Of a stretch of 64,000 nt of DNA, positions 3,203-45,943 are shown piece after piece; within the stretch, counting starts at the first letter, position 1, and every line of letters begins with the position of its first letter. Below the pieces are notes generated by a model, which made no database searches, was not told where the DNA came from, and saw only the letters and a program-made list of their open reading frames with translations. The stretch is from Escherichia phage RB43: the sequence record NC_007023.1; one strand, written 5' to 3'. Position numbers and translations under genes: made by a program.

Positions 3203-4880
3203 GTATCAGAATATTCTGTCGGTCGGGAATACCCCGATCGAACTCGAATTCGATACTGCAAAGAAAACCCTGATTACGGGTAAAAATGGTGGTGGTAAAT
3301 CCACACTGATCGAAGCGTTGACGTATGCTCTTTTTGGTAAGTCATTTCGTGATCTAAAAGTCGGGCAACTGGTAAACAGTGTCAACAAAAAGAAATGCCT
3401 TGTTGAACTCGAAATTGAATATGGCAAAGACTCGTACAAAATTGTACGTGGACAGAAGCCGAAGGTATTCGAGATCTGGAAAAACGGCGATAAGTTAGCA
3501 GAAGATTCGGCATCGGGTGATTATCAATCTCAGCTTGAATCCATGCTCAATATTAACCTGGTTGGATTCAAACAGGTAATCGTGTTGGGTACTGCTGGTT
3601 ATACTCCATTCATGGAACTGAGAACACCGGATCGCCGTAAACTGGTTGAAGACCTGTTGTCGCTATCGGTTATCAGTGAAATGGATAAGCTGAACAAATC
3701 ATATGTTCGTGGTGTTAATCAGCAGTTGGATACCCTGTCTATGCAGGTGAACCACATCCAGCAGCAGATCGCTACACACCAGCGCTTCATTGATGAACAG
3801 CGAGCTAAAGCGAACCAGAACAACGCACGATACAAAGAGATCTACGATAGTCACGTTGAAACCGCGAAGAACATCAAAGCACAGCTTATGCAGTTGCAAG
3901 CGGAGATCGCAGAAACGGTGATCACTGGTGCAGACCGAACGGAAGATATAAACAAACTCCGTGATGGTTATACGCGCCTCTCTATGACTGTAGAACAGTT
4001 TAAAAAGCTGGAAGTGATGTATCAGAAAGGTGGTGAGTGTCCGGCCTGTAAACAGGCGATTAAGCCCACTCCTGAACGCATGGAAGAGATCGCCAACAAT
4101 ATCAAAGCTGGTACACAACGATTAACGCTGATCAAAACCAAACAGGACGAGTTGCAAGGCATTATGAACGAGTTGCTTCAACAGCAACGCGCACTGAATG
4201 CTATGAAAACGAAATACGAAGCCCTGAAAGGTACTTTACAAAACGAAGTCGCCAACGCTAAACGCGCACAAGCTATTATGGAACAGGCAAGCGCGGAAGT
4301 CGTTATTGACGAAGAACCCGTTAAGCAGTTGCAGCAACAAGAAACAGAACTGAATGATAAACGTCAAGGATACGTGAAAGAAAAATATATCCGTGGTATC
4401 GTTACGGATATGTTAAAAGATTCAGGTGTGAAAGCCAGTATCGTAAAACGATATATTCCGTACTTCAATAAACAGATTGCGTATTATCTGAATCTGTTGG
4501 GTGCTGATTATCAATTTACACTGGATGATGAATTCAACGAATCGATCAAATCTCTGGGACGCGATGATTTTAGTTACGCATCATTCAGCCAGGGTGAACG
4601 CGCACGAATCAACCTATCAATTCTGTTTACATGGCGCGATGTAACAAGTAAAGTCTCCGGCGTGGATCTGTCTCTGCTGGTACTTGATGAAGTGTTTGAT
4701 GGGCCACTTGATAAAGAGGGTTCATTTGCGATTAAATCACTTCTGGATTCTGTCGATGGTAACGTTATTGTCATCAGTCATCAGGATCTTGATCCGCAAG
4801 ATTTCGATCGACACATCATCATGTCTAAGGTTGGACGGTTCACAAAACCATCAATCAAAGATATGGCGGTATCATGTTAG
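3177..4880 (+). CDS. 46: Recombination nuclease subunit gp46 (Rad50/SbcC-like ATPase)
   Basis: 567 aa; Walker A GKNGGGKST, long coiled coil, CPxC zinc hook, signature SFSQGERARINLS, D-loop LVLDEVFDG; start MKLNFKKIKYQNILSVG matches T4 gp46. Confidence 0.92.
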   Translation: MKLNFKKIKYQNILSVGNTPIELEFDTAKKTLITGKNGGGKSTLIEALTYALFGKSFRDLKVGQLVNSVNKKKCLVELEIEYGKDSYKIVRGQKPKVFEIWKNGDKLAEDSASGDYQSQLESMLNINLVGFKQVIVLGTAGYTPFMELRTPDRRKLVEDLLSLSVISEMDKLNKSYVRGVNQQLDTLSMQVNHIQQQIATHQRFIDEQRAKANQNNARYKEIYDSHVETAKNIKAQLMQLQAEIAETVITGADRTEDINKLRDGYTRLSMTVEQFKKLEVMYQKGGECPACKQAIKPTPERMEEIANNIKAGTQRLTLIKTKQDELQGIMNELLQQQRALNAMKTKYEALKGTLQNEVANAKRAQAIMEQASAEVVIDEEPVKQLQQQETELNDKRQGYVKEKYIRGIVTDMLKDSGVKASIVKRYIPYFNKQIAYYLNLLGADYQFTLDDEFNESIKSLGRDDFSYASFSQGERARINLSILFTWRDVTSKVSGVDLSLLVLDEVFDGPLDKEGSFAIKSLLDSVDGNVIVISHQDLDPQDFDRHIIMSKVGRFTKPSIKDMAVSC

Positions 4881-5065
4881 AACGTGAGTTCGATTTAAAG
4901 ACCTCTCCCGAAGTGGATAGGTATTATCTACACAACGAACTGTTGGAAGAAAAACACGTTGTTACTATGGAAGATGTCAAAGAAGCCTTTAAAGACAATC
5001 AGTTAGAGCTAACGCGAATACTGAATAACAAATCGTCTGTATGGTTTCTTGAAAAAATCTATTGA
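4874..5065 (+). CDS. hypothetical protein (63 aa)
   Basis: ORF overlapping gp46 stop; followed by terminator. Confidence 0.4.
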   Translation: MLEREFDLKTSPEVDRYYLHNELLEEKHVVTMEDVKEAFKDNQLELTRILNNKSSVWFLEKIY

Positions 5066-5091
5066 CACCTGAACATAAATACCTTAAAGTT

Positions 5092-5124
5092 GCCCGTGTA
5101 CTGAGTTGCACGGGCTTTTATTTT
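5092..5124 (+). terminator. Rho-independent terminator
   Basis: GCCCGTG...CACGGGC hairpin followed by TTTTATTTT. Confidence 0.65.
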
Positions 5125-5136
5125 GAGGAACGGAAA

Positions 5137-5850
5137 ATGATTAACGAAAAAATGACACATCGCGAAGCGTTGGAAATCTTAGGGGCTACTGGTACTGAAT
5201 CCAAAGCCGAAATGTCCAAACTCTTCAAACGTGCTTCTCTGCGTAATCACCCCGATCGTGGTGGTAGCACAGAACTCATGCAAAAAATTAACCAGGCATA
5301 TGACGTAGTAACGAGAACAAACAGTTCTGGCGAAACTATGATGGATATGCGAGCGCGTCACGCAGCGAATAAAAAAGCGTGGGAAGAAAAACTGGATGCG
5401 TATTTTGTTGTTGCTAAGAACTATTTCAGCACGAAATTTAACGCACAGGAATTCGCTGAATACTTCACCAAATACACCGGACAACCGACGACCTTCACAC
5501 AGGAAGTCAAGAAAGATACAATTTCCGTATCTGCTGTGTTCCGTTTCACTTCTGGTGATGCTCACTTTGATTTCGCTTTCTACTGCAAGCCGGAAGAAGG
5601 TAAAGGTTTGATGTCTCCTGATGCAAGCGCATTGGGTAGTGTTTCTGTCAATACTCTGGTATTGGTTGGAACCAAAAAACATAAAATGGCAAGCCGTGAA
5701 TATCAATGGGGCAAAAACCCAGATAAGATCACACCAGAAAGCCTGTTCCCGTCCAAGAAACTTGCATCAATTTTCAGCCCGACACAAAAGAACCTCAAGT
5801 TCAAACGTGCTGACTATATGACTTCTTTCCGCAAGCACTTAGACGCATAA
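5137..5850 (+). CDS. J-domain (DnaJ-like) protein
   Basis: N-terminal J domain with HPD motif (RNHPDRGGSTELMQKINQAYDVV); start ATG 5137 after terminator and GAGGAA RBS. Confidence 0.7.
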   Translation: MINEKMTHREALEILGATGTESKAEMSKLFKRASLRNHPDRGGSTELMQKINQAYDVVTRTNSSGETMMDMRARHAANKKAWEEKLDAYFVVAKNYFSTKFNAQEFAEYFTKYTGQPTTFTQEVKKDTISVSAVFRFTSGDAHFDFAFYCKPEEGKGLMSPDASALGSVSVNTLVLVGTKKHKMASREYQWGKNPDKITPESLFPSKKLASIFSPTQKNLKFKRADYMTSFRKHLDA

Positions 5851-5913
5851 ATTAGCGGTAATGATATCTATGTTCCTGTAGGCGACCTGAAAGTTCGTTT
5901 CTATCGTCATGTA

Positions 5914-6834
5914 ATGATGCGTAAAGGTGCGTATGTGTTTAGTGCGGTATACGACCCAGCGGTAAGTAAATTCCGTTCTGCTGCAAACCTTCGCGGTACT
6001 ATGTTTGAAGACGAAGACGGCGCATGTTTGGATATGATTATCGACACTTTCAAAGAAATGCAGAAAGCAAAACCGAACGTTAACGGTATTGTCGGTATCA
6101 TTGACAAGATGAACGCAGAATTCGCAGCGGGACACCGTTCAGCATCTTTCGTCAAACGTATGGCACAGCAAGCAGCAGCACCGAAGCCGGAAGAAAAGCC
6201 GAAACGCACTGTTAACCGTATCAGCAAAGATGATTATTTCAACGCATTGAAACAAGCGGGTGCAACATTCCGTAGCAACTACGGTGAGTTTGATAACGGC
6301 GCTGGATTGACTTTCCACTTCAAACGCGAGATCAGCAACCGTAAAGGCTTCTGGAGTTTCAGCAGTTTTAATTTCATGCACTCTGGTCAACGTCATGTTG
6401 AATGGTTGAAAGATATCGACATTGACGAAGACAGCAAAGGTGCAAGTATCGGTCTGATGGTTGATACTCTGAAACAGTTGCGTGGTGTTGCTGATTGGTA
6501 TACTGCAAGAAAGATCCTGGAAGCGATGCGCGACAACTTCAAAGCTGGTAAGTTCTCCGCACCACACGTTAAGAAAGAAGCCGAACAGAAACGCACTGAG
6601 GCGCAAGCTAAGGACGAGTTAGGCGCACAGCCTACCAAACCCCAGGAAGCAAAGAAAGAAGCCCCAGCAGTTGATAAGGCTCATGAGGCGCAAATGGCTA
6701 AAGAGAAAGCACAGATGAATGCAACCATTCGTTCTATGCTCTCCGCTCTGGTTAAAGCTGGACGCAAAGACACGCCGGAAGAAATTAAAAAAGCAGTTGA
6801 TGAAGCAATCGCTCTCTGGCGCTTGAAACACTAA
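5914..6834 (+). CDS. hypothetical protein (306 aa), charged Lys/Ala/Glu-rich C-terminus
   Basis: Long ORF in same frame as the J-domain gene, separated only by one TAA stop. Confidence 0.55.
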   Translation: MMRKGAYVFSAVYDPAVSKFRSAANLRGTMFEDEDGACLDMIIDTFKEMQKAKPNVNGIVGIIDKMNAEFAAGHRSASFVKRMAQQAAAPKPEEKPKRTVNRISKDDYFNALKQAGATFRSNYGEFDNGAGLTFHFKREISNRKGFWSFSSFNFMHSGQRHVEWLKDIDIDEDSKGASIGLMVDTLKQLRGVADWYTARKILEAMRDNFKAGKFSAPHVKKEAEQKRTEAQAKDELGAQPTKPQEAKKEAPAVDKAHEAQMAKEKAQMNATIRSMLSALVKAGRKDTPEEIKKAVDEAIALWRLKH

Positions 6835-11470: not shown

Positions 11471-12646
11471 ATGTTAACAGTAATGAACACAAACCCCGAT
11501 CACAAACACTTAGAACAGCCAATGTTCTTCGGTGAAGATACTGGGGTTGCCCGATATGAAGAACAAAAACATCGCGTATTCGAAACTTTGACTGAAAAAC
11601 AACTGTCATTCTTCTGGCGACCGGAAGAAGTGGATCTGTCGATCGACCGTATGCAGTATGCAAAAATGCCGGAACACGAGAAAATCATTTTTGATTCTAA
11701 CCTGCAATATCAAACCCTGTTAGATACCATTCAGGGACGTGGCCCTAACCTGGCGTTTCTCCCGATTGCCTCTGATGTTTCAATGGAAACGTGGATCGAA
11801 ACATGGGCTTTCAGTGAAACAATTCATAGCCGCAGTTATACACACATTCAGCGTAACTTGCATATCGACCCGGCTAAAGAGTTCGACAAAATCCTTCGTA
11901 ACGAAGCGATTATGAAACGTTCGGCTTCAATGACAAAATATTACGATGACCTGATCGCAGAATGTCATGAACTGAAAAACATCGTTCTCAAGATCGAAAT
12001 GATGACATCCCACGGATACCCAGACGAATCGATCGCTGAATACGAACAGAAACGCAAAGAGCAAATGCGCAAATGTAAGGTTGCTCTTTATCTGTGTATG
12101 CACGCTGTCAACGCTCTGGAAGCGATTCGTTTCTATGTCTCGTTTACCTTTACGTTCAACTTTGCCGAACAGGGCAAGATGGAAGGTAACGCAAAGATCA
12201 TGCGTCTGATTGCCCGTGATGAAGCACTTCATCAGAAAGGTACTCAAAGCAAGATCCGACTCTGGCAGATGGGTAAAGATGACCCAGAAATGGCAGAAAT
12301 CGCGTATCAGTACGAAGAAGAAGCAACACAGATTTTCCTCGAAGTTTACGAGCAGGAAAAAGAATGGGCTGAACACTTATTCAGTATTGGTGATGTTGAC
12401 GGCGTGACACTGAAAAGTACAATCGCCTATATCGAACACTTAACCGACCAACGTATGCGAGCGGTTGGGTTACAGTCTCCGTTTAAACCGAGTCCTAACC
12501 CGTATCCGTGGATGAACAAATGGTTGAAGTCTGACAACGTTCAGGTAGCCCCGCAAGAGGTTGAAGTAAGTTCTTACCTGGTTGGCAACCTCAACACCGA
12601 GATCAGCGACGAAGCCTATGCAAAATGGCGACAAAAATACGCGTAA
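11471..12646 (+). CDS. nrdB: Ribonucleotide reductase small subunit (intronless)
   Basis: 391 aa; diiron/tyrosyl radical R2 fold features; uninterrupted ORF. Confidence 0.9.
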   Translation: MLTVMNTNPDHKHLEQPMFFGEDTGVARYEEQKHRVFETLTEKQLSFFWRPEEVDLSIDRMQYAKMPEHEKIIFDSNLQYQTLLDTIQGRGPNLAFLPIASDVSMETWIETWAFSETIHSRSYTHIQRNLHIDPAKEFDKILRNEAIMKRSASMTKYYDDLIAECHELKNIVLKIEMMTSHGYPDESIAEYEQKRKEQMRKCKVALYLCMHAVNALEAIRFYVSFTFTFNFAEQGKMEGNAKIMRLIARDEALHQKGTQSKIRLWQMGKDDPEMAEIAYQYEEEATQIFLEVYEQEKEWAEHLFSIGDVDGVTLKSTIAYIEHLTDQRMRAVGLQSPFKPSPNPYPWMNKWLKSDNVQVAPQEVEVSSYLVGNLNTEISDEAYAKWRQKYA

Positions 12647-37754: not shown

Positions 37755-39974
37755 TTACAGTTTAACTTCTTTTTCTTCCAGAACGATTTCGCAATCGAAT
37801 GTTGCACCTTCCCAGAATTTATGCGGGATAATGTCAGTCGCTTTAACCGATACTTTGGTTTCTTCAAAATCCAGATCCGCAAACCAGGCGTGGCCTACAA
37901 CGATACCATACATTACACGGCTCAGGCGCTTGTTCAGTGCGCGTACTTCGTTGATGGTTGCCTTTGTTTCTTTATCAAGGTACTCGATTACCTTATCCTT
38001 GTCAAGCGCTGCGAGTTCAGCTTTAACAGAATCGTAAGCCCACAGGATGATCAGGTCGCCGTTGTTCAGTTTCTTCTTACCTTCGGCACGTTTCGCAACG
38101 GTTGCCGCTACAGCAGGAAGGGAGGAAACACCCTTGATTTTCAGATTCAGTTCTTTCGACATATAAACATCAGTCGAATCGGTACTGGTTACTTTCGGGG
38201 AGAATCCATAATCACGAATACCCTGTTCAGATAACCATTCACCAGCGGCTTCACCGTATTTCTGTTTCAGACCTTCGGCATTACGTAAACCGATCGCGTC
38301 GTCACGGAAGAACTTCATCACCTTCTGGCGACCTTTCAGGATTTCCAGACGGATAGAGTCGTTTACATACTCTTTACCGGAGATCCCGCGAGTCATCGCA
38401 CGGTTAACCAGGGGCAGACTGGTAAAGTCAACCAGTACCGACATGCGGTCTTCACCGATTTTTGCCAGCGGCTTGATAGTCAAACCAGAAGCGCGAAGGT
38501 TTTTCAGTGTCGGAATATCAGTTTCCAGCGGCAGAACCTTAACGTTTACGATACCGTCTTTAACGATGGTAAAGTTACGTACCTGCTTAGTTTCGATCTG
38601 TTCAGGCAGTTTCAGTTCTTTCTGTTTGCTTTCTGGGATAGTTACGTAACCCATCAGATCCGTGTTAATGGAAATGTTAGGACGTGAACTGTTACCGACC
38701 AGGTGCTTAACCGATACTTTGGTTGTAGTCTGGGTAAATTTCGGTGTCCAGATTTCATGCGTTACCATTTGCGCCGCAAGTGCTTTGCGTTCTTCCGGTG
38801 TTTTCGCGTTTGCAATCTGTTCAGACAGTTGATCCAGAGTATCATCTTCTTTCTGTACCGTCTGACGGCCTGTGCGGTTGTACGCCCAGTGTTCAGAGGA
38901 CAGGTCGATCACAGTGTCGGTTTCTGCCAGCAGTTCGAGAGCGTCAACCAGAGTGAACGCGTTTTCGTCTGGAACCATGTTGTAATCAACACCATCGAGC
39001 AGACGTTTAGCCGGATCAACTACCGCTTCCGCGATCAGGTCTTTCGCGTTGGAATAGTCCTGTTTGGTAAAGCAGTTATCATACGCCTTAATCAGACGAA
39101 CATCACCCAGCTTTTTCAGCACTTTCCATGCAAGGTCAGGGTTCATTGTGTGTAGCGCATGATACAGCACGACATACAGAACCTGTTCACCTTCCAGAGT
39201 AGCCGGATCGAAACCGTCGATGTCGTTGATTGCGTTATCACCCAGCGCCCAGATGTTTTTGATGTGCTCAGGAACCAGAACAACACCGTTTGCAGCGTTC
39301 AGGACATACACACGCCCTTCGTCCAGGTAGATAGCATGGGTTGCGTCAGCAACTTTAACTTCGACGCGAGCGGAGGTTTGCGCGGTGATGATTTCAGCAA
39401 ATGCTGGCTCGTATGCGTCGAAACCTTCAACGAATTTATGCAATGCGTTGGTTGCTTCTGCCATTTTTTCCAGCAGAGGACGGTTAACATAATAGCCGTA
39501 TTCCAGGAATGCAATGCTGTTAAACGTCAGCGGGAGAACCGCACACGCTTTCAGGATGTCATCGGTACGCCAGCAGTTATCATAACCATCAGTCAGGAAG
39601 ATCAGGCTGTTCAGGTTGCCGTTTTCGGATTGCAGGTCGGTTGCGATTTCAGCAGCCAGATTCAGTGGTTCAACAAAACCAGTACAACCAGTAGGTTTCA
39701 GATAACGGTCGATCGCGGTACAGATATTGGTCAGATCCGATACGTTGCTAACCTTCTCACCACGGAACACAGTACCGTAATCGCCTTTGCTGGAGAAGTA
39801 CAGGATCGAAACGGTGTCATCCTGTTTAACCAGACTCGCCAGGTTTGCTTTCAGGTGCTTACGGATCTTCGGCAGTTCGTTATACATTGAACCGGAAACG
39901 TCGCAAACGAAAACGTGGTTGGTCGGAGTCGGCTTAGATACTGCGTTTTTGAATTCGATATTTGTAATTGACAT
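37755..39974 (-). CDS. Large vWA (MIDAS-containing) domain protein, 739 aa
   Basis: N-terminal vWA with DxSxS MIDAS motif (HVFVCDVSGSMYNELPKIRKHL...ILYFSS...FLTDGYDN); about 530-aa C-terminal region unrecognised. Confidence 0.7.
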   Translation of the reverse strand: MSITNIEFKNAVSKPTPTNHVFVCDVSGSMYNELPKIRKHLKANLASLVKQDDTVSILYFSSKGDYGTVFRGEKVSNVSDLTNICTAIDRYLKPTGCTGFVEPLNLAAEIATDLQSENGNLNSLIFLTDGYDNCWRTDDILKACAVLPLTFNSIAFLEYGYYVNRPLLEKMAEATNALHKFVEGFDAYEPAFAEIITAQTSARVEVKVADATHAIYLDEGRVYVLNAANGVVLVPEHIKNIWALGDNAINDIDGFDPATLEGEQVLYVVLYHALHTMNPDLAWKVLKKLGDVRLIKAYDNCFTKQDYSNAKDLIAEAVVDPAKRLLDGVDYNMVPDENAFTLVDALELLAETDTVIDLSSEHWAYNRTGRQTVQKEDDTLDQLSEQIANAKTPEERKALAAQMVTHEIWTPKFTQTTTKVSVKHLVGNSSRPNISINTDLMGYVTIPESKQKELKLPEQIETKQVRNFTIVKDGIVNVKVLPLETDIPTLKNLRASGLTIKPLAKIGEDRMSVLVDFTSLPLVNRAMTRGISGKEYVNDSIRLEILKGRQKVMKFFRDDAIGLRNAEGLKQKYGEAAGEWLSEQGIRDYGFSPKVTSTDSTDVYMSKELNLKIKGVSSLPAVAATVAKRAEGKKKLNNGDLIILWAYDSVKAELAALDKDKVIEYLDKETKATINEVRALNKRLSRVMYGIVVGHAWFADLDFEETKVSVKATDIIPHKFWEGATFDCEIVLEEKEVKL

Positions 39975-41544: not shown

Positions 41545-41585
41545 AATAAAACCCTCACGAAAAGCCCCTTTCGGGGCTTGATTAA

Positions 41586-41873
41586 TCAGTGTCCGAAGAT
41601 GTGTTTAACAGACTCAGCGAAAGCGTAAAACACCGGATTGTTTTCTTTTAGCATCGCTTCTGATTTCAGAAGATACTCGCTTTTGAACTTAGCACCGAAC
41701 AGGCAGTAAGAAAACGATTTGTCCCAGTAAAAGCAGTTGTAACCACCATCAACAAATCTCACTTCAACCAACAGATAACCCACATCTTCCGGTTTGGTAT
41801 TCGAATAATCTTTCAGAAGATTCGCGCTTACTACTTCGTATGCTTTGCCAGCAACCAAATCGTTATAAGTCAT
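41586..41873 (-). CDS. hypothetical protein (95 aa)
   Basis: ORF following hairpin 41558-41577. Confidence 0.5.
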   Translation of the reverse strand: MTYNDLVAGKAYEVVSANLLKDYSNTKPEDVGYLLVEVRFVDGGYNCFYWDKSFSYCLFGAKFKSEYLLKSEAMLKENNPVFYAFAESVKHIFGH

Positions 41874-41887
41874 GATGTGGTTCCTTT

Positions 41888-42358
41888 TCAGTTTCGTTTC
41901 GATAAAGTTAAGGTATCACTGTTCTTACGAAGATGCAAACACTTTTTTGAAGAATTTGTTTCCGGTCTTTCTTTGTATGGGCGCATGGTCAACCGCTTAC
42001 CGTCCAATACTGTTGGTTTTCCATCCAGTTCAATCAGGATAAAGTTGCCTTTGCGATACTTCAACACGCCCTGGCTTGCCGACCATTCATCGTTATCCCA
42101 GTGGTTGTAATGCCATTCAACAACGGTATCGATTGGTATTTCTGGTTGATTTCTCATATTTGCTTTCCTTCGTTCTGATGCTTCTTTCAATTGTCGTATT
42201 TGTGGTATCAACTGTTGTGGTGGAACAGTATCTTCCCGTTTCAATGCCTTTCGAACTTGATCAACAAACCATTCGTATTTCGGACGGCGGTTAAGTTCTT
42301 CCCTTAGTCGGGCATTCTCTTGTTCGGCAATGCTTGCGCGTTTTCTGTAATCGGTCAT
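41888..42358 (-). CDS. hypothetical protein with N-terminal coiled coil (156 aa)
   Basis: ORF overlapping methyltransferase stop by 4 nt (likely co-translated). Confidence 0.5.
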   Translation of the reverse strand: MTDYRKRASIAEQENARLREELNRRPKYEWFVDQVRKALKREDTVPPQQLIPQIRQLKEASERRKANMRNQPEIPIDTVVEWHYNHWDNDEWSASQGVLKYRKGNFILIELDGKPTVLDGKRLTMRPYKERPETNSSKKCLHLRKNSDTLTLSKRN

Positions 42359-43263
42359 AGAACTTTCCTTATCTGTTTGGCTATTGCCTCGATAACTGGC
42401 ACGGAAACGGAGTTACCCGCTTGCTTGTATGCTTGTTTTTTACTCGATGGAATAATAAACGAATCTGGGAAGCCCTGCAAGCGAAAACATTCACGCGGGG
42501 TTAATCGTCGTGGGTTCTTCCCATCCTGTAACACCAGACACTGAACGCCGTCCTTGTAGTATTGCGCTGTGATGGTTCCTGTGTGCGTAGAATCGGCTGT
42601 GACGGCCTGATAACCAAACCCCTTACCGTTTGCCTTATTTCGTTCCTTACGCTCTCTAAAGCCTTTCCACGCGTTATCTGATAGGGTGTACGAATCATCA
42701 ACATCTTCGAGGATATCACCTACGCGCGTAGGGGTGCGCGGGGGAACCGGAAACGAAAAGAATACATCATCCAGGAAGCAGACAATAAACACACGTTCAC
42801 GTCGCTGGGGTAATCCGAAATCTTTCGTATTCAGTCGTTGATAGAATACGTTGTATCCTTCGGCCTCCAGAAGCCCGTAAATCGTTTTAAACGTCTTTCC
42901 CTTGTCATGGGTTAGCAATTCAGGCACATTCTCAAAGAACAGCACACGGGGCTTTTTAGCGCGTATAATGCGGAGGATTTCAAAGAACACCGTACCGCGA
43001 ACATCATCGAAGCCCAGTTTTAATCCGGCTTTACTGAATGCCTGACACGGGAACCCAGCCAACAGGATATCGTGATCAGGTACTTTGTTTTCATCAATGG
43101 CGAACAAGTCACCTTCGAGATTATCACCGCCCCAGTTAGCGGCGTATGTTTGCTGTGCGAATTTGTCGATCTCAGCAGTAAGCACACATTCAACACCGTC
43201 AAATGCGCGATCAAAGCCCATACGAACGCCACCAACGCCAGCGCATAAATCAATCAGTTTCAT
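42355..43263 (-). CDS. DNA (cytosine-5)-methyltransferase (Dcm-like)
   Basis: Canonical m5C MTase motifs: I DLCAGVGG, IV GFPCQAFS, VI ENV, VIII QRRERVF, X GNSVSVPV. Confidence 0.9.
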   Translation of the reverse strand: MKLIDLCAGVGGVRMGFDRAFDGVECVLTAEIDKFAQQTYAANWGGDNLEGDLFAIDENKVPDHDILLAGFPCQAFSKAGLKLGFDDVRGTVFFEILRIIRAKKPRVLFFENVPELLTHDKGKTFKTIYGLLEAEGYNVFYQRLNTKDFGLPQRRERVFIVCFLDDVFFSFPVPPRTPTRVGDILEDVDDSYTLSDNAWKGFRERKERNKANGKGFGYQAVTADSTHTGTITAQYYKDGVQCLVLQDGKNPRRLTPRECFRLQGFPDSFIIPSSKKQAYKQAGNSVSVPVIEAIAKQIRKVL

Positions 43264-43290
43264 AAATATACCTAAAAAGAGGGTAATAAC

Positions 43291-43992
43291 ATGCTAATAT
43301 CAGCAAGCAGTGTAGACGAATTGAACAGCAAGGTCAACGAAATGCTGTCACAAGGGATGTACTTATGGGGAAGCCCGTTCGTTGTCCCATCCGATTATCT
43401 GAACCAAACACGATTCTTTCAACAGGTTTCAAACGTAAATCCTTCGAGCGGCGGAACCGATGGAAAGAGTGCGTATCAACTATGGGTTGAACAACCAGGC
43501 AATGAAGGGAAAACACTAGATGATTTCTTTGATTCCATTGCAGGGGTTCGCAAAAAATCAGAGGTGTTCTGGACGGGGCTTAGTCTGGTGATCCCAGAGG
43601 ATACGCCGACCAACTTCATCAACCTGATTAAAGGGACCATTCCGACTACCGGAACATTAGAACCGTTCTTCAAAATTACAGACAATAAGTTACACCCGTT
43701 TAACGAAAACTCAACATTAACGTTTAAGCTGAACCTGAAAGGTACTTTCACAGGGGCAACAACCGCACAGCGTAGCGTTACACTTGATTTTGTCGGTACA
43801 CAGGGCAACACCCTCACTCTGAACCGCAGCCAATCGGTAACTACTAGCACCCTTTCTTTCGTCACGTTCTTTAGTGTCGATAAAAACGGAAATATGGTTA
43901 CTAATGGTACTGCATTCAACATTTTCGCAAACGGTAGCCCGTTTACTGTATCCGAAGTTCTTTTAGTCGCCGAACAGCGTACTACTCAATAA
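43291..43992 (+). CDS. Lone plus-strand gene: beta-rich Thr/Asn/Gly-rich protein with tail-fibre-like motif (233 aa)
   Basis: AGAGGG RBS; motif GKSAYQLWVEQPGNEGKTLDDFFDSIAG resembles conserved tail-fibre segments; bounded by bidirectional terminator. Confidence 0.6.
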   Translation: MLISASSVDELNSKVNEMLSQGMYLWGSPFVVPSDYLNQTRFFQQVSNVNPSSGGTDGKSAYQLWVEQPGNEGKTLDDFFDSIAGVRKKSEVFWTGLSLVIPEDTPTNFINLIKGTIPTTGTLEPFFKITDNKLHPFNENSTLTFKLNLKGTFTGATTAQRSVTLDFVGTQGNTLTLNRSQSVTTSTLSFVTFFSVDKNGNMVTNGTAFNIFANGSPFTVSEVLLVAEQRTTQ

Positions 43993-44012
43993 CAAAAAAG
44001 CCCCGAAAGGGG
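43985..44012. terminator. Bidirectional terminator
   Basis: AAAAAAGCCCCGAAAGGGGCTTTTC. Confidence 0.7.
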
Positions 44013-44019
44013 CTTTTCT

Positions 44020-44283: not shown

Positions 44284-44559
44284 GTAGAACTTTCCATATG
44301 TGTTGAAATTGATACTTTCGTGGTTACGTTCATTGATCGTGATTTCATAATCGTAATCTTCATTAGTAACCGCGCGGTCGTGTTTGATAACGTTCACGTC
44401 ATAAACGCGGGATAACGCATGATACAAAGAATCACGGATCTTTTCAGCAATCTTCGCGGGTTCGCTATACATATTGAGCATATCAGCAACAATACCTTCT
44501 ACTCGCTGAATATCTCGCTGTTCGATGTATCCTACGTACAGGCTTACGTCTTTAATCAT
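44281..44559 (-). CDS. hypothetical protein (92 aa)
   Basis: ORF overlapping nucleotidyltransferase gene stop. Confidence 0.5.
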   Translation of the reverse strand: MIKDVSLYVGYIEQRDIQRVEGIVADMLNMYSEPAKIAEKIRDSLYHALSRVYDVNVIKHDRAVTNEDYDYEITINERNHESINFNTYGKFY

Positions 44560-45554
44560 TTGTAATACCCCAGAACATGATCTTTGTATACCTGTTCGAT
44601 AAAGTCATTCCAGAATTCCCGATCGACTTCTTTCGGATAGGTAGAGATTGCAGCAAGGCGTTCAACTTCGCCCATCACTTCCTCCAGTTTTTCCTGTACT
44701 TCGGCAAACGGGACATTACCAGCTTTAACCGATTTCAACAGGTCACTCTCAGGAAGAGGGTACACGATATCGCCGTGTTTGTAAATCTGTACTAACTGCA
44801 TACCACCGCGCAATGCGTGACTTAATGCTTTCCAATCGATCCCGTTGTTGGCTTCTGCTTGTCGTGCGCGTTCGCCATATTCATCCCAGAGCTTGTACAC
44901 GGATTTCTTCATTTCCGCTACGGTGATCGTGAACTGGAATTTACGACCCAATACTTCATAGAAATTCTGCATACCGCCTTTTTCGCTATAATGCAAAATA
45001 GAACGACAGAATTCATTGGTCGGTAGTTGGTCTTTGATGTCGCCAACTTTGATGTTTTCTATTGCATCACCCAGATTGGAAGGCATACGCACAACGCGAG
45101 TATTTGGGGTGTCTTGTAACACGTCATACACTTCACGCAGTGCAGCCAGGCGAGAACCTTTCACACCATATTTCGCGGCTTGCTTACGGACATAACCGAA
45201 CAGGCCAGTTAACTCCGTAGTGTAGAAACGCCAACGGTTAGCGCGGATATACTGCCAGATTTCAGAGTTAGCGATCAGCTTGCTATCATCAGCATGAAGC
45301 ATATCGAGCGCTACGGTATCACCATCACACGCAAGGCTGATGAACTTAGGCAGACTATACAACTGACGGTCTACGTCATCAACGGTGTTTTTAGAGTTCT
45401 TATCGCCCGTGCTCGTGTCGATAGTCTTCGGGGCTTTACCTAGCAAGATATCGCGTGGATGCGGGAGGAAGATCCCTTTATAATCTTTGTCGCTTGTCGG
45501 GGTGTTCAGCCCGTACAGGTGAGAACCGAACACAGTTTCCATTACAATTTTCAC
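44556..45554 (-). CDS. Pol-beta superfamily nucleotidyltransferase-like protein (332 aa)
   Basis: N-terminal minimal NTase motif VFGSHLYGLNTPTSDKDYKGIF (GS...hDhD) with later acidic residues; helical C-terminal domain. Confidence 0.55.
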   Translation of the reverse strand: MKIVMETVFGSHLYGLNTPTSDKDYKGIFLPHPRDILLGKAPKTIDTSTGDKNSKNTVDDVDRQLYSLPKFISLACDGDTVALDMLHADDSKLIANSEIWQYIRANRWRFYTTELTGLFGYVRKQAAKYGVKGSRLAALREVYDVLQDTPNTRVVRMPSNLGDAIENIKVGDIKDQLPTNEFCRSILHYSEKGGMQNFYEVLGRKFQFTITVAEMKKSVYKLWDEYGERARQAEANNGIDWKALSHALRGGMQLVQIYKHGDIVYPLPESDLLKSVKAGNVPFAEVQEKLEEVMGEVERLAAISTYPKEVDREFWNDFIEQVYKDHVLGYYK

Positions 45555-45943
45555 AATTCAACTCCCAGAGTTTTTGCAATTTCTTTCAATTGGTCAGTTG
45601 TGATATCAGGAACAGTCACACCGTAACTATGTCCAAACACGTATTTGATCTTAGCGGATAATTCCTCGCGATACAACTTTTCTTTGTACGCCTCTTCGCT
45701 GCGATAAACCTTAATACCGTTCCAATCGTTAGAACTTCCGGTTTTGCGGTCCAGCTTTTCGACGCAATATGATTTAAGATCTGTTTCTGTAGGGTTAGGC
45801 GATGCGTACAGATACTGACGCGCAACCTTATGAACATACAGAATACGCGGTTTTACACGGCAACGGTTATCATATCCACGTTCACCAGGATCATATAAGG
45901 TATCGCCTACTTTAACATCTGTTAAACTCATTTCATTTTCCAA
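45551..45943 (-). CDS. hypothetical protein (130 aa)
   Basis: ORF overlapping NTase start by 4 nt. Confidence 0.5.
   Translation of the reverse strand: MENEMSLTDVKVGDTLYDPGERGYDNRCRVKPRILYVHKVARQYLYASPNPTETDLKSYCVEKLDRKTGSSNDWNGIKVYRSEEAYKEKLYREELSAKIKYVFGHSYGVTVPDITTDQLKEIAKTLGVEL

Follow-up and report, generated by a model that had tools for sequence, protein, structure and literature searches.

Enzymes of the M.SsoII type (M.SsoII, M.Ecl18kI and M.Kpn2kI) are cytosine methyltransferases (MTases) of 379 aa that carry a 71-residue helix-turn-helix (HTH) domain regulating a divergent restriction endonuclease (REase) gene (PMC3978073, PMC2760811). The SsoII, Ecl18kI and Kpn2kI systems reside on small enterobacterial plasmids, within the host range of RB43-like phages (Shigella, E. 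coli, Klebsiella, Enterobacter and Salmonella). M.NlaX from Neisseria lactamica, which is 67% identical to M.SsoII's MTase domain and shares that enzyme's specificity, is missing residues 1–71 and represents a natural delta(1–71) form of M.SsoII (PMC3978073). M.SpyI is encoded by the Streptococcus pyogenes mefA prophage element, where it is paired in a restriction–modification (R-M) cassette with a LlaJI/McrBC-like REase of two subunits; it has an N-terminal HTH extension. The 408-aa MTase of phi29862 lies in a mefA/msrD element beside the genes for two REase subunits, in the position of spyIM, and we take it to be the orthologue of SpyIM in Phi1207.3 and Phi10394.4. These elements have been described (PMC4260502), and C(m5C)NGG methylation has been cited for M.SpyI (PMC6597129), as it has in the literature for the SsoII-type enzymes and M.NlaX. 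M.HhaI, which recognizes GCGC, is 41% identical to the SsoII MTase domain (PMC3978073).

The related gene of Escherichia phage RB43 lies in a 64,000-nt stretch of record NC_007023.1 (hereafter the window), which is 99.9% identical to the resequenced RB43-GVA. The gene occupies positions 42355..43263 on the minus strand (RB43ORF127c) and encodes 302 aa. Residues 1–299 matched positions 1–323 of the 324-position Pfam profile PF00145 (E = 6.2e-94; 315.5 bits, cutoff 22), and TIGR00675 was matched with 320 bits (cutoff 100.65). All of the m5C MTase motifs quoted in the initial annotation were recovered: motif I DLCAGVGG (residues 5–12), motif IV GFPCQAFS (residues 70–77, with PCQ at 72–74 and the catalytic Cys73), motif VI ENV (residues 111–113), motif VIII QRRERVF (QxRxR, residues 153–159) and motif X GNSVSVPV (residues 283–290), with the target recognition domain (TRD) at residues of about 160–251. 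The motif order is linear (I–VIII, TRD, IX–X) without circular permutation and is colinear with M.HhaI residues 13–318 and with M.Ecl18kI. The protein begins only 4 residues ahead of motif I, and no HTH match was found in Pfam. Judged by its sequence, the ORF encodes a C5-cytosine DNA methyltransferase that is intact. The gene itself is already known and is of little importance on its own account, having been listed in 2006 and carrying an annotation in dozens of genomes of related phages.

The RB43 MTase belongs to the SsoII/NlaX/SpyI lineage. Its best plasmid matches were pECL18, pKPN2 and 4.2-kb Shigella sonnei plasmids (55.4% identity over residues 2–302), and identity to M.SsoII, M.Ecl18kI and M.Kpn2kI was 54.9–55.4% across the whole MTase domain. 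The lowest of these values, 54.9%, was obtained for M.Ecl18kI, whose TRD is 51% identical and colinear with one 4-residue and one 1-residue gap. The SpyI-type MTase of phi29862 was 54.5% identical (TRD 45%, again with one 4-residue and one 1-residue gap) and P0064, named nlaX by its source, was 57.6% identical (TRD 56%, one 1-residue gap). Overall, TRD identity to SsoII-type enzymes was 45–60% with small gaps only. Bacterial homologues with 57–62% identity adjoin REases that share 40% identity with R.Ecl18kI (E = 3e-53), and the annotation of the orthologue in phage KP15 notes similarity to NlaX and ScrFIA.

In its layout the phage enzyme resembles M.NlaX, as both are single-domain proteins of about 300–313 aa with no N-terminal HTH. 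It differs from M.NlaX in that its TRD loops and its motifs I, VIII and X carry changes specific to the phage clade, and in being encoded by a lytic T4-like phage. Unlike the SsoII-type systems, RB43 has neither the HTH domain nor the REase; with M.SpyI it shares a phage or prophage location, but not the R-M cassette or the HTH extension. The best match of solved structure was M.HhaI (E = 7e-64), with RB43 residues 2–298 aligned to residues 13–318 in the same motif order. In an alignment with M.HhaI, the RB43 TRD appears 13 residues shorter, a deletion common to the SsoII-type enzymes, and its recognition loops appear different; its target would be expected to differ from GCGC. The initial annotation had called the enzyme Dcm-like. 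This holds at the level of the superfamily, to which E. coli Dcm and M.EcoRII (CCWGG) also belong, but not as orthology: the Dcm model NF007772 gave 203 bits (cutoff 710) and aligned from residue 58 only, the Shigella Dcm structures 3lx6 and 3me5 aligned to residues 59–298 only, the N-terminal extension of about 90 aa found in Dcm is missing, and the overlapping downstream gene is not Vsr.

Orthologues that are 82–100% identical were found at the same genomic locus in Pseudotevenvirus and Slopekvirus (e.g. KP15_105 and RB16p119), where existing annotations call them DNA-cytosine methyltransferase or note a similarity to NlaX/ScrFIA. The MTase gene was present in about 185 phage records in all. 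Comparison with the KP15 copy gave a dN/dS of 0.087, and the gene is under strong purifying selection. Its flanks vary among the orthologues, and both the divergent needle-knob ORF and the 144-aa ORF described below occur in some members only.

We then looked for a cognate REase, and the claim that none is adjacent stood. No REase family was detected on 18 flanking ORFs with Pfam and PADLOC, and tblastn with R.Ecl18kI and two homologues gave no match at E ≤ 1 to Ecl18kI-type REases across the 64-kb window. There was likewise no match to an R.Ecl18kI-type REase among 50,697 phage records. Because an Ecl18kI-type REase is missing from both the window and these records, we regard the MTase as an orphan that is apparently solitary, without a cognate REase. 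No TET or carboxymethyl hypermodification partner domain was detected among the neighbouring genes.

The target sequence had been given as unknown, and family placement narrows it: the enzyme likely methylates the inner C of CCNGG, or of its CCWGG subset. CCNGG enzymes of Gram-negative and Gram-positive bacteria share the recognition-loop consensus GKGFGY[GS]LF...SPYTNT[IL]SARYYKDGSEILIEQ, and the phage MTases keep GKGFGY, T.T[IL][ST]A.YYKDG and NPR[KR][IL]TPRE. Clade-specific changes were seen in two putative recognition loops (GY[GS]LFN to GYQAVT, SPYTNTISAR to STHTGTITAQ and GSEILIEQ to GVQCLVLQ). In motif I the GxG part is kept (LCAGVGG) and the conserved Phe is replaced by Cys (F7C); the other phage-clade substitutions are N154R in motif VIII and F282A in motif X. 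Given these loop and motif changes, target or kinetics may differ from those of SsoII. We examined the context of two bacterial MTases with phage-like TRD loops (P0042 and P0046) as a guide to specificity and recognized no REase adjacent to either.

Our preferred reading, to which we assign a probability of roughly 0.7, is that RB43 encodes an active solitary C5-MTase of the SsoII/NlaX/SpyI lineage that protects phage DNA at CCNGG, with the small downstream ORF as an accessory. After replication, the enzyme, in the one-domain form of M.NlaX without an N-terminal HTH regulator, would use AdoMet to methylate the inner cytosine of CCNGG on phage DNA, presumably by base flipping and the covalent mechanism of Cys73 in PCQ. 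There are about 112 CCNGG sites in the 64 kb, or ~1 per 570 bp. The RB43 genome is almost without CCSGG, and therefore nearly all modified sites would be CCWGG, a Dcm-like outcome. Progeny DNA would be refractory to CCNGG/CCWGG systems of the SsoII/Ecl18kI/Kpn2kI, EcoRII and PcaI types whether or not the host has Dcm; restriction systems with these targets are common on small plasmids and chromosomes of enterobacterial hosts. Self-protection against host restriction, proposed in the initial annotation, is the most plausible role, and the purifying selection, the wide occurrence among phages and the missing Ecl18kI-type REase all fit it. Indirect support comes from KP15, whose virion DNA resisted EcoRII despite 279 sites (PMC3620542), a resistance that could equally stem from host Dcm. 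In the literature we found no methylome of RB43-like or KP15-like phages; the EcoRII-resistance data available, for KP15 and KP27, are confounded by Dcm.

Transcription signals at the locus count against the preferred reading in that we found no convincing MTase promoter and a bidirectional terminator-like hairpin lies upstream. The MTase start is separated by a 27-bp spacer (43264..43290) from a divergent plus-strand ORF of 233 aa (43291..43992) with a Sf6-type tail-needle-knob domain (PF16532, E = 9e-35; phrog_1030). This ORF is absent from RB16, and in many relatives the start of the MTase is precisely where DNA homology ends; the ORF is a variable insertion, back to back with the MTase, and belongs to the context, not to the function, of the MTase. 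Just beyond it, at 43996..44017, is a perfect hairpin, AAAAGCCCC-GAAA-GGGGCTTTT, accompanied by runs of T on either strand, which would cut the MTase off from the minus-strand genes upstream. A weak sigma-70-like match on the minus strand upstream of the MTase (TTGAAA-17-GATAAT, 43394..43422) is a candidate promoter only, as such matches occur in the region at chance level (12 found vs 10.2 expected). Neither the T4 late consensus (TATAAATA) nor the MotA-box middle consensus was found upstream of the MTase.

We compared the frequencies of CCSGG and CCWGG across five genome segments. CCSGG was the most depleted 5-mer in RB43, with 4 observed vs 38–58 expected; the four sites in the window are at 11869, 32139, 32784 and 55823. 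It ranked first in each of two independent RB43 regions (observed/expected ratios of 0.10 and 0.07) and third in KP15, and was not depleted in T5 or lambda. CCWGG showed no depletion in RB43, where many other restriction sites have nevertheless been purged, and this indirectly favours the preferred reading. The purge of CCSGG with retention of CCWGG is possibly a new observation. A full CCNGG methylase should make such a purge needless unless some other pressure acts on CCSGG.

It is possible, and we suggest it tentatively, that the MTase and the oligonucleotide content of the genome have co-adapted in the RB43/KP15 lineage, either by a narrowing of specificity to CCWGG or by avoidance of McrA-type restriction. 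C(m5C)GG is the classic target of McrA-type methyl-dependent restriction. In the McrA version, the MTase would still make C(m5C)NGG, and the purge of CCSGG would follow from the presence of C(m5C)GG in the CCGGG strand once it is modified. In Pectobacterium, CCNGG methylation is the target of a described Type IV enzyme (PMC8989522). If co-adaptation is real, the phage would tune both the TRD of its methylase and its own sites between modification-blocked and modification-dependent restriction. The sharp contrast of CCSGG with CCWGG suggests an interplay of self-methylation with methyl-dependent restriction.

The narrowing version taken on its own is doubtful. It holds that the phage MTase has gone from CCNGG to CCWGG, becoming functionally Dcm-like, and that unprotected CCSGG was purged by CCNGG-cutting host enzymes. 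The site frequencies in RB43, KP15, T5 and lambda agree with it, as do the conserved clade-specific loop changes, including R-to-Q in ISAR to ITAQ, and where a CCNGG system restricted plasmids carrying Dcm (CCWGG) methylation, their unmethylated CCSGG sites have been held responsible (PMC8989522). However, the TRD is colinear, apart from small gaps, with three characterized CCNGG enzymes, and the GYQxVT and TGT features of the loops also occur in some bacterial members of the family that retain SAR. Moreover, no structural or biochemical basis for W discrimination is known in this scaffold, and the CCSGG purge could have other causes.

The preferred reading also treats the small ORF downstream of the MTase as a variable accessory gene that is translationally juxtaposed by chance in RB43. 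In NC_007023.1 this minus-strand ORF (41888..42358) encodes 156 aa, with a predicted helical module at residues ~1–68 and a predicted small beta domain at ~76–127. RB43-GVA has one extra T near 41955, which gives 144 aa (equivalent to 41924..42358) ending in ...ETKFFKKVFASS. The 144-aa form agrees with all homologues and with the 146-position PHROG model, and the 156-aa form is peculiar to the NC_007023.1 record. The 4-nt overlap reported in the initial annotation was correct, with both ORFs on the same strand, but the length was specific to the record. The ORF had also been placed upstream, overlapping the MTase start, and this was wrong. Within the ATGA overlap (42355..42358, minus strand), TGA at 42357–42355 is the MTase stop and ATG at 42358–42356 is the start of the small ORF, so the overlap involves the stop of the MTase and not its start. 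A Shine–Dalgarno-like AAGGA lies about 7 nt upstream of the small-ORF ATG.

The small protein matched phrog_16432 (E = 8e-94) and, over residues 3–66, phrog_10768; no family match was found in Pfam, NCBIfam or PADLOC. For this putative coiled-coil protein, as the initial annotation had it, an AlphaFold model from a 7-sequence alignment, of low confidence (pLDDT 55, pTM 0.27), showed three helices (residues 2–68) followed by a five-strand beta domain. Foldseek against the PDB returned nothing at E ≤ 0.001 for this model, and the best weak matches were uninformative SH3-like or Sm-like barrels, the C-terminal domain of HIV integrase and Hfq among them. A profile search of 1.84 billion representatives yielded 25 matches, in which the N-terminal module occurred alone (~70 aa) or fused to unannotated domains; nine of the 25 were scanned with Pfam and none carried an informative annotation. 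One multi-repeat match, to an Ig-domain protein of 2677 aa, seems to be an artefact of the repeats. The vsr gene of E. coli overlaps dcm, and its product has the same length of 156 aa. We rejected Vsr as the identity of the ORF, there being no Pfam or NCBIfam match and only a sub-threshold one to Ntox50 (18.3 vs 22.2 bits). A hidden REase was rejected by sequence comparison, as BLASTP against R.Ecl18kI and two homologues gave noise and PADLOC was empty.

Could the two proteins nevertheless form a two-gene module, co-expressed through the ATGA, in which the small one acts as a regulator, specificity factor or anti-restriction partner? The overlap and its Shine–Dalgarno-like sequence would suit such an arrangement, and the ORF adjoins the MTase in RB43, GuL6 and EcRAM-01 and almost adjoins it in about 30 further Pseudotevenvirus records. 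We nonetheless consider it very unlikely. The small ORF was found in only 41 phage records, the MTase in about 185; Slopekvirus lacks the ORF and has a convergent gene next to the MTase in its place, and in RB16 an 84-aa gene separates the two. Ten records retain only residues 64–141, the C-terminal half, the N-terminal part is found alone or fused to unrelated domains, and its homologue P0125, on a phage contig, has no MTase nearby. No family or fold was assigned to the small protein, and the functional link suggested in the initial annotation is unsupported.

Regulatory roles are known for orphan MTases in general terms. Methylation in RB43 might accordingly serve epigenetic control of expression or packaging, or shield cytosine DNA from phage DenA-type nucleases, as has been speculated for the RB43-type and RB49-type groups (PMC8056088). 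Such ends are highly improbable here, as methylation at the observed density of CCNGG sites cannot shield DNA from a nuclease of different or broader specificity, the nearest relatives of the MTase all belong to R-M systems, and strong restriction-site avoidance elsewhere in the genome points to restriction as the main pressure. Least credible is that the DLFAG-to-DLCAG change in motif I leaves the enzyme catalytically impaired or using a different cofactor: F7C is fixed in 23/23 phage-clade MTases (Phe in 97/97 other family members examined) and a phage C5-MTase homologue with a carboxymethyl donor has been described (PMC12783734), but the catalytic Cys, ENV and QxRxR are intact, the low dN/dS speaks for retained function, identity to ordinary methyltransferases is 55–62% and the neighbourhood of the MTase showed no CmoA-like gene.

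The predicted protection of CCNGG/CCWGG at the inner C has practical consequences for restricting, cloning and nanopore sequencing the DNA of RB43-, RB16- and KP15-like therapeutic phages, whose relevant hosts include Klebsiella, Enterobacter, Cronobacter and Citrobacter. One methylase combined with heavy site avoidance also suggests which host systems would fail to restrict these phages, namely those of the SsoII/Ecl18kI/Kpn2kI and EcoRII types and cutters of CTGAAG, TCCGGA, GGWCC and similar sites.

The minus-strand run has a third gene, a 95-aa ORF at 41586..41873 that matched phrog_7752 (E = 2e-47; function unknown). Six nt past its stop, at 41561..41580 on the minus strand, is a GC-rich hairpin, AAGCCCC-GAAA-GGGGCTT followed by TTTT, a possible terminator that a consensus scan missed because its T tail is weak.

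The 302-aa ORF at 42355..43263 on the minus strand of RB43 (RB43ORF127c) is a solitary phage C5-cytosine DNA methyltransferase (MTase) of the SsoII/NlaX (CCNGG) lineage. The five motifs from which the initial annotation had recognized an intact m5C enzyme are all present (DLCAGVGG, residues 5–12; GFPCQAFS, 70–77; ENV, 111–113; QRRERVF, 153–159; GNSVSVPV, 283–290), and the protein matched Pfam PF00145 end to end (E 6.2e-94, 315 bits; gathering score 22), NCBIfam TIGR00675 at 320 bits and, as its best solved structure, M.HhaI (E 7e-64, residues 2–298 on 13–318). In a megablast search of 50,697 phage records, 41500–43600 was 99.9% identical over its full length to Enterobacteria phage RB43-GVA (HE858210, where position 73100 corresponds to 41500 here) and 86–96% identical to GuL6, RB16, Margaery, GAP161 and other Pseudotevenvirus genomes. 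The gene is previously annotated and not new: Nolan et al. had already covered it, its orthologues in many related genomes carry a DNA-cytosine methyltransferase annotation, and the KP15 GenBank record describes its own as "similar to cytosine methylase NlaX; methylase ScrFIA".

The enzyme had been called Dcm-like, which holds at the superfamily level but not for the Dcm subfamily. On NF007772, the model of the E. coli Dcm subfamily, the MTase scored 203 bits (cutoff 710) in an alignment starting only at residue 58, and the Shigella Dcm structures 3lx6 and 3me5 aligned to residues 59–298 only, with a weaker score than HhaI (E 1e-49). When 72,556 plasmids were searched by tblastn, the top matches (55.4% identity over residues 2–302) were 4–6-kb plasmids from Shigella sonnei, E. 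coli, E. fergusonii, Klebsiella, Salmonella and Enterobacter. They include pECL18 of Enterobacter cloacae and pKPN2 of Klebsiella pneumoniae, each with a 379-aa MTase divergent from a type II restriction endonuclease (REase); the pairs make up the Ecl18kI and Kpn2kI systems, both isoschizomers of SsoII, and CCNGG is given as the Ecl18kI/SsoII target (PMC2577355, PMC2760811). The MTase domain of SsoII is 41% identical to M.HhaI, and NlaX has been described as a natural delta(1-71) mutant (PMC3978073). A homologue named nlaX by its source was 57.6% identical to the RB43 MTase, which begins four residues before motif I and therefore, like NlaX, is without the SsoII HTH regulator. The 408-aa MTase of phi29862, a Streptococcus pyogenes mefA prophage, was 54.5% identical; we assumed it to be the orthologue of SpyIM, whose product makes 5mC at C(m)CNGG (Euler et al, 2007, as cited in PMC6597129).

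The target-recognition domain (TRD, residues 160–251) was colinear with those of Ecl18kI, SpyI-type and NlaX-like enzymes. Only one 4-residue and one 1-residue gap separated it from M.Ecl18kI (51% TRD identity) and M.SpyI (45% for the SpyI-type protein), and a single 1-residue gap from the NlaX-like proteins (56–60%). Compared with M.HhaI, the RB43 MTase and its relatives share a 13-residue TRD deletion. Bacterial homologues 57–62% identical to the MTase adjoin nucleases of the EcoRII-C family (PF09019) with 40% identity to R.Ecl18kI (E 3e-53 and 8e-32). Given the colinear TRD, the Ecl18kI-like nucleases beside the bacterial homologues and the NlaX-like start, the inner C of CCNGG is the best-supported predicted target.

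No restriction-enzyme family was matched among the 18 ORFs flanking the MTase (Pfam, PADLOC), and tblastn with R.Ecl18kI and two homologues found no match at E ≤ 1 in the 64-kb window, in agreement with the initial view that no REase is adjacent; R.Ecl18kI also had no match in the 50,697 phage records. The MTase itself occurred in 185 phage records (E ≤ 1e-60), 172 of them at 60% identity or more, with copies 92–100% identical in Pseudotevenvirus and 82–85% in Slopekvirus. Between RB43 and KP15, dN/dS was 0.087 (Nei–Gojobori; dS 1.43, dN 0.12), a value that indicates an expressed, functional protein. Its role is most likely that of an anti-restriction self-methylase. KP15 virion DNA is EcoRII-resistant despite 279 sites (PMC3620542), which fits inner-C methylation of CCWGG; host Dcm could equally account for the resistance. 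In a P2-like prophage of Morganella morganii (positions 4523–5927), an intact MTase that shares 62% identity with that of RB43 adjoins a 156-aa fragment matching R.Ecl18kI residues 123–262, and the pair looks like the remains of a decayed CCNGG-type restriction–modification system, with an orphan methylase surviving on the prophage.

The two halves of CCNGG were represented very differently in the window. CCWGG occurred 108 times (expected 139 from a maximal-order Markov model, 77 from base composition) and CCSGG four times, at 11869, 32139, 32784 and 55823 (expected 38.5 and 58); CCCGG/CCGGG was the most depleted of 511 5-mer classes tested (z = −5.6). The observed/expected (Markov) ratio for CCSGG was thus 0.10 (rank 1), and it was 0.07 in RB43-GVA 1–50 kb (2 against 27.4, rank 1) and 0.29 in KP15 45–95 kb (10 against 34.6, rank 3). 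Depletion of CCSGG with CCWGG kept therefore extends to a second RB43 region and to KP15, but not to T5 30–80 kb (21 against 21.4, ratio 0.98, rank 233) or lambda (114 against 128.9, ratio 0.88, rank 64). This purge beside CCWGG retention in an MTase-bearing lineage is the one item here that may be new. Several 6-mers corresponding to known restriction sites were missing or rare in the window: CTGAAG (0 against 42 expected), TCCGGA (0 against 25), GGATCC, CTGCAG, CGTACG and ACCGGT (0 each), AAGCTT (1) and ATGCAT (3). GGWCC was also depleted (9 against 33), and GGSCC was not. Avoidance of restriction sites is thus widespread, with CCWGG a tolerated exception, which supports its protection by methylation.

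As a separate observation, CTWGG/CCWAG was strongly under-represented (9 observed against 29 by the Markov model or 103 by base composition) and CCWGG stood at 1.4 times its base-composition expectation. This resembles the E. coli very-short-patch-repair signature; the rarity of CTAG accounts for part of it.

A purge of CCSGG is puzzling for an enzyme that would methylate every CCNGG, and it can be read in two ways. In one reading the enzyme still acts on CCNGG and CCSGG, modified or not, is disfavoured on other grounds. C(m5C)GGG includes C(m5C)GG, which McrA classically targets, and CCSGG-specific enzymes may likewise go unblocked. A Type IV enzyme directed at CCNGG-methylated DNA is also known (PMC8989522). 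Narrowing of the phage enzyme to CCWGG is a rather unlikely account; it draws on a CCNGG system found to restrict Dcm-methylated plasmids, an effect put down to their unmethylated CCSGG sites (PMC8989522), and on substitutions fixed in the phage clade. A Phe that is otherwise near-invariant in motif I (DLCAG) is Cys at residue 7 in 23/23 phage-clade sequences and in 0/97 other family members, and the clade also carries N154R in motif VIII (QRRER for QNRER) and F282A in motif X (QAGNS for QFGNS). In two putative recognition loops, GY[GS]LFN became GYQAVT, SPYTNTISAR became STHTGTITAQ and GSEILIEQ became GVQCLVLQ, the conserved TRD-loop changes falling within residues 211–246.

A small ORF (ORF156, 41888..42358), described as coiled-coil, had been placed upstream of the MTase, overlapping its start. 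On the minus strand, where both genes lie, the small ORF runs from 42358 down to 41888 and comes after the MTase; the tetranucleotide at 42355–42358 is indeed shared, but with the MTase stop (plus-strand tcat is minus-strand ATGA, in which the stop TGA overlaps the small-ORF ATG). AAGGA lies ~ 7 nt upstream of this ATG. The proposed partnership fell with the misread strand order and is not conserved: RB16 has an 84-aa gene between the two, and KP15 lacks the small ORF and has a convergent gene after the MTase. The small ORF was found in only 41 phage records, 10 of which retain residues 64–141 only, and a homologue of its N-terminal module in an unrelated phage contig has no MTase nearby. Because it is sparse, truncated, separated or absent in relatives, we conclude that its juxtaposition with the MTase in RB43 is incidental.

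NC_007023.1 differs from RB43-GVA here by two single-base indels, one T fewer at ~ 41955 and one extra G at ~ 41879. The former shifts the small-ORF C-terminus, giving 156 aa instead of the family-typical 144 aa of RB43-GVA, which ends ...ETKFFKKVFASS and agrees with every homologue and with the 146-position phrog_16432; a sequencing error, or else a frameshift peculiar to this strain, probably explains the 156-aa tail. The second indel precedes the start of a 95-aa ORF (ORF95, 41586..41873, minus strand) by 6 nt. The small-ORF protein had no family match in Pfam, NCBIfam or PADLOC, and its low-confidence AlphaFold model (pLDDT 55; three helices at 2–68, a five-strand beta domain at 78–127) retrieved no structure at E ≤ 0.001 with Foldseek. 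Searching 1.84 billion representatives with a profile revealed a modular protein. Its N-terminal module of ~ 65 residues (YRxRAxxAEQENAxLRxELxxRPxYEWFV...QLKEA, encoded at 42160–42358) is helical, unannotated and recurrent (P0127–P0135), either stand-alone at ~ 70 aa or joined to unrelated unannotated domains, and in a 94-aa protein the beta domain is preceded by another helix.

On its other side, a 27-bp spacer separates the MTase start from a divergent 233-aa ORF (43291–43992, plus strand) with an Sf6/P22-type tail-needle-knob domain (PF16532, E 9e-35), followed by a perfect, bidirectional terminator-like hairpin with T runs on both strands (43996–44017). The knob ORF is absent from RB16 and many relatives. 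Since the stop of the upstream gene overlaps the MTase ATG in RB16, and DNA homology breaks off exactly at the MTase start in many relatives, the knob ORF and terminator look like a moron-like insertion that severed the RB43 MTase from its ancestral operon. No convincing MTase promoter was found, sigma-70-like matches being at chance level and the T4 middle and late consensus absent. A second hairpin follows ORF95 (41561–41580) and may close a short unit made up of the MTase, ORF156 and ORF95. Neighbours on the minus strand encode a 739-aa protein whose N-terminus carries a von Willebrand A domain (37755–39974), a 332-aa RlaP/nrdC.11-type nucleotidyltransferase (44556–45554) and a 130-aa phage ProQ-C-like domain protein (45551–45943). 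The knob ORF lies in the early region of this T4-like myovirus and is oriented opposite to all its neighbours.
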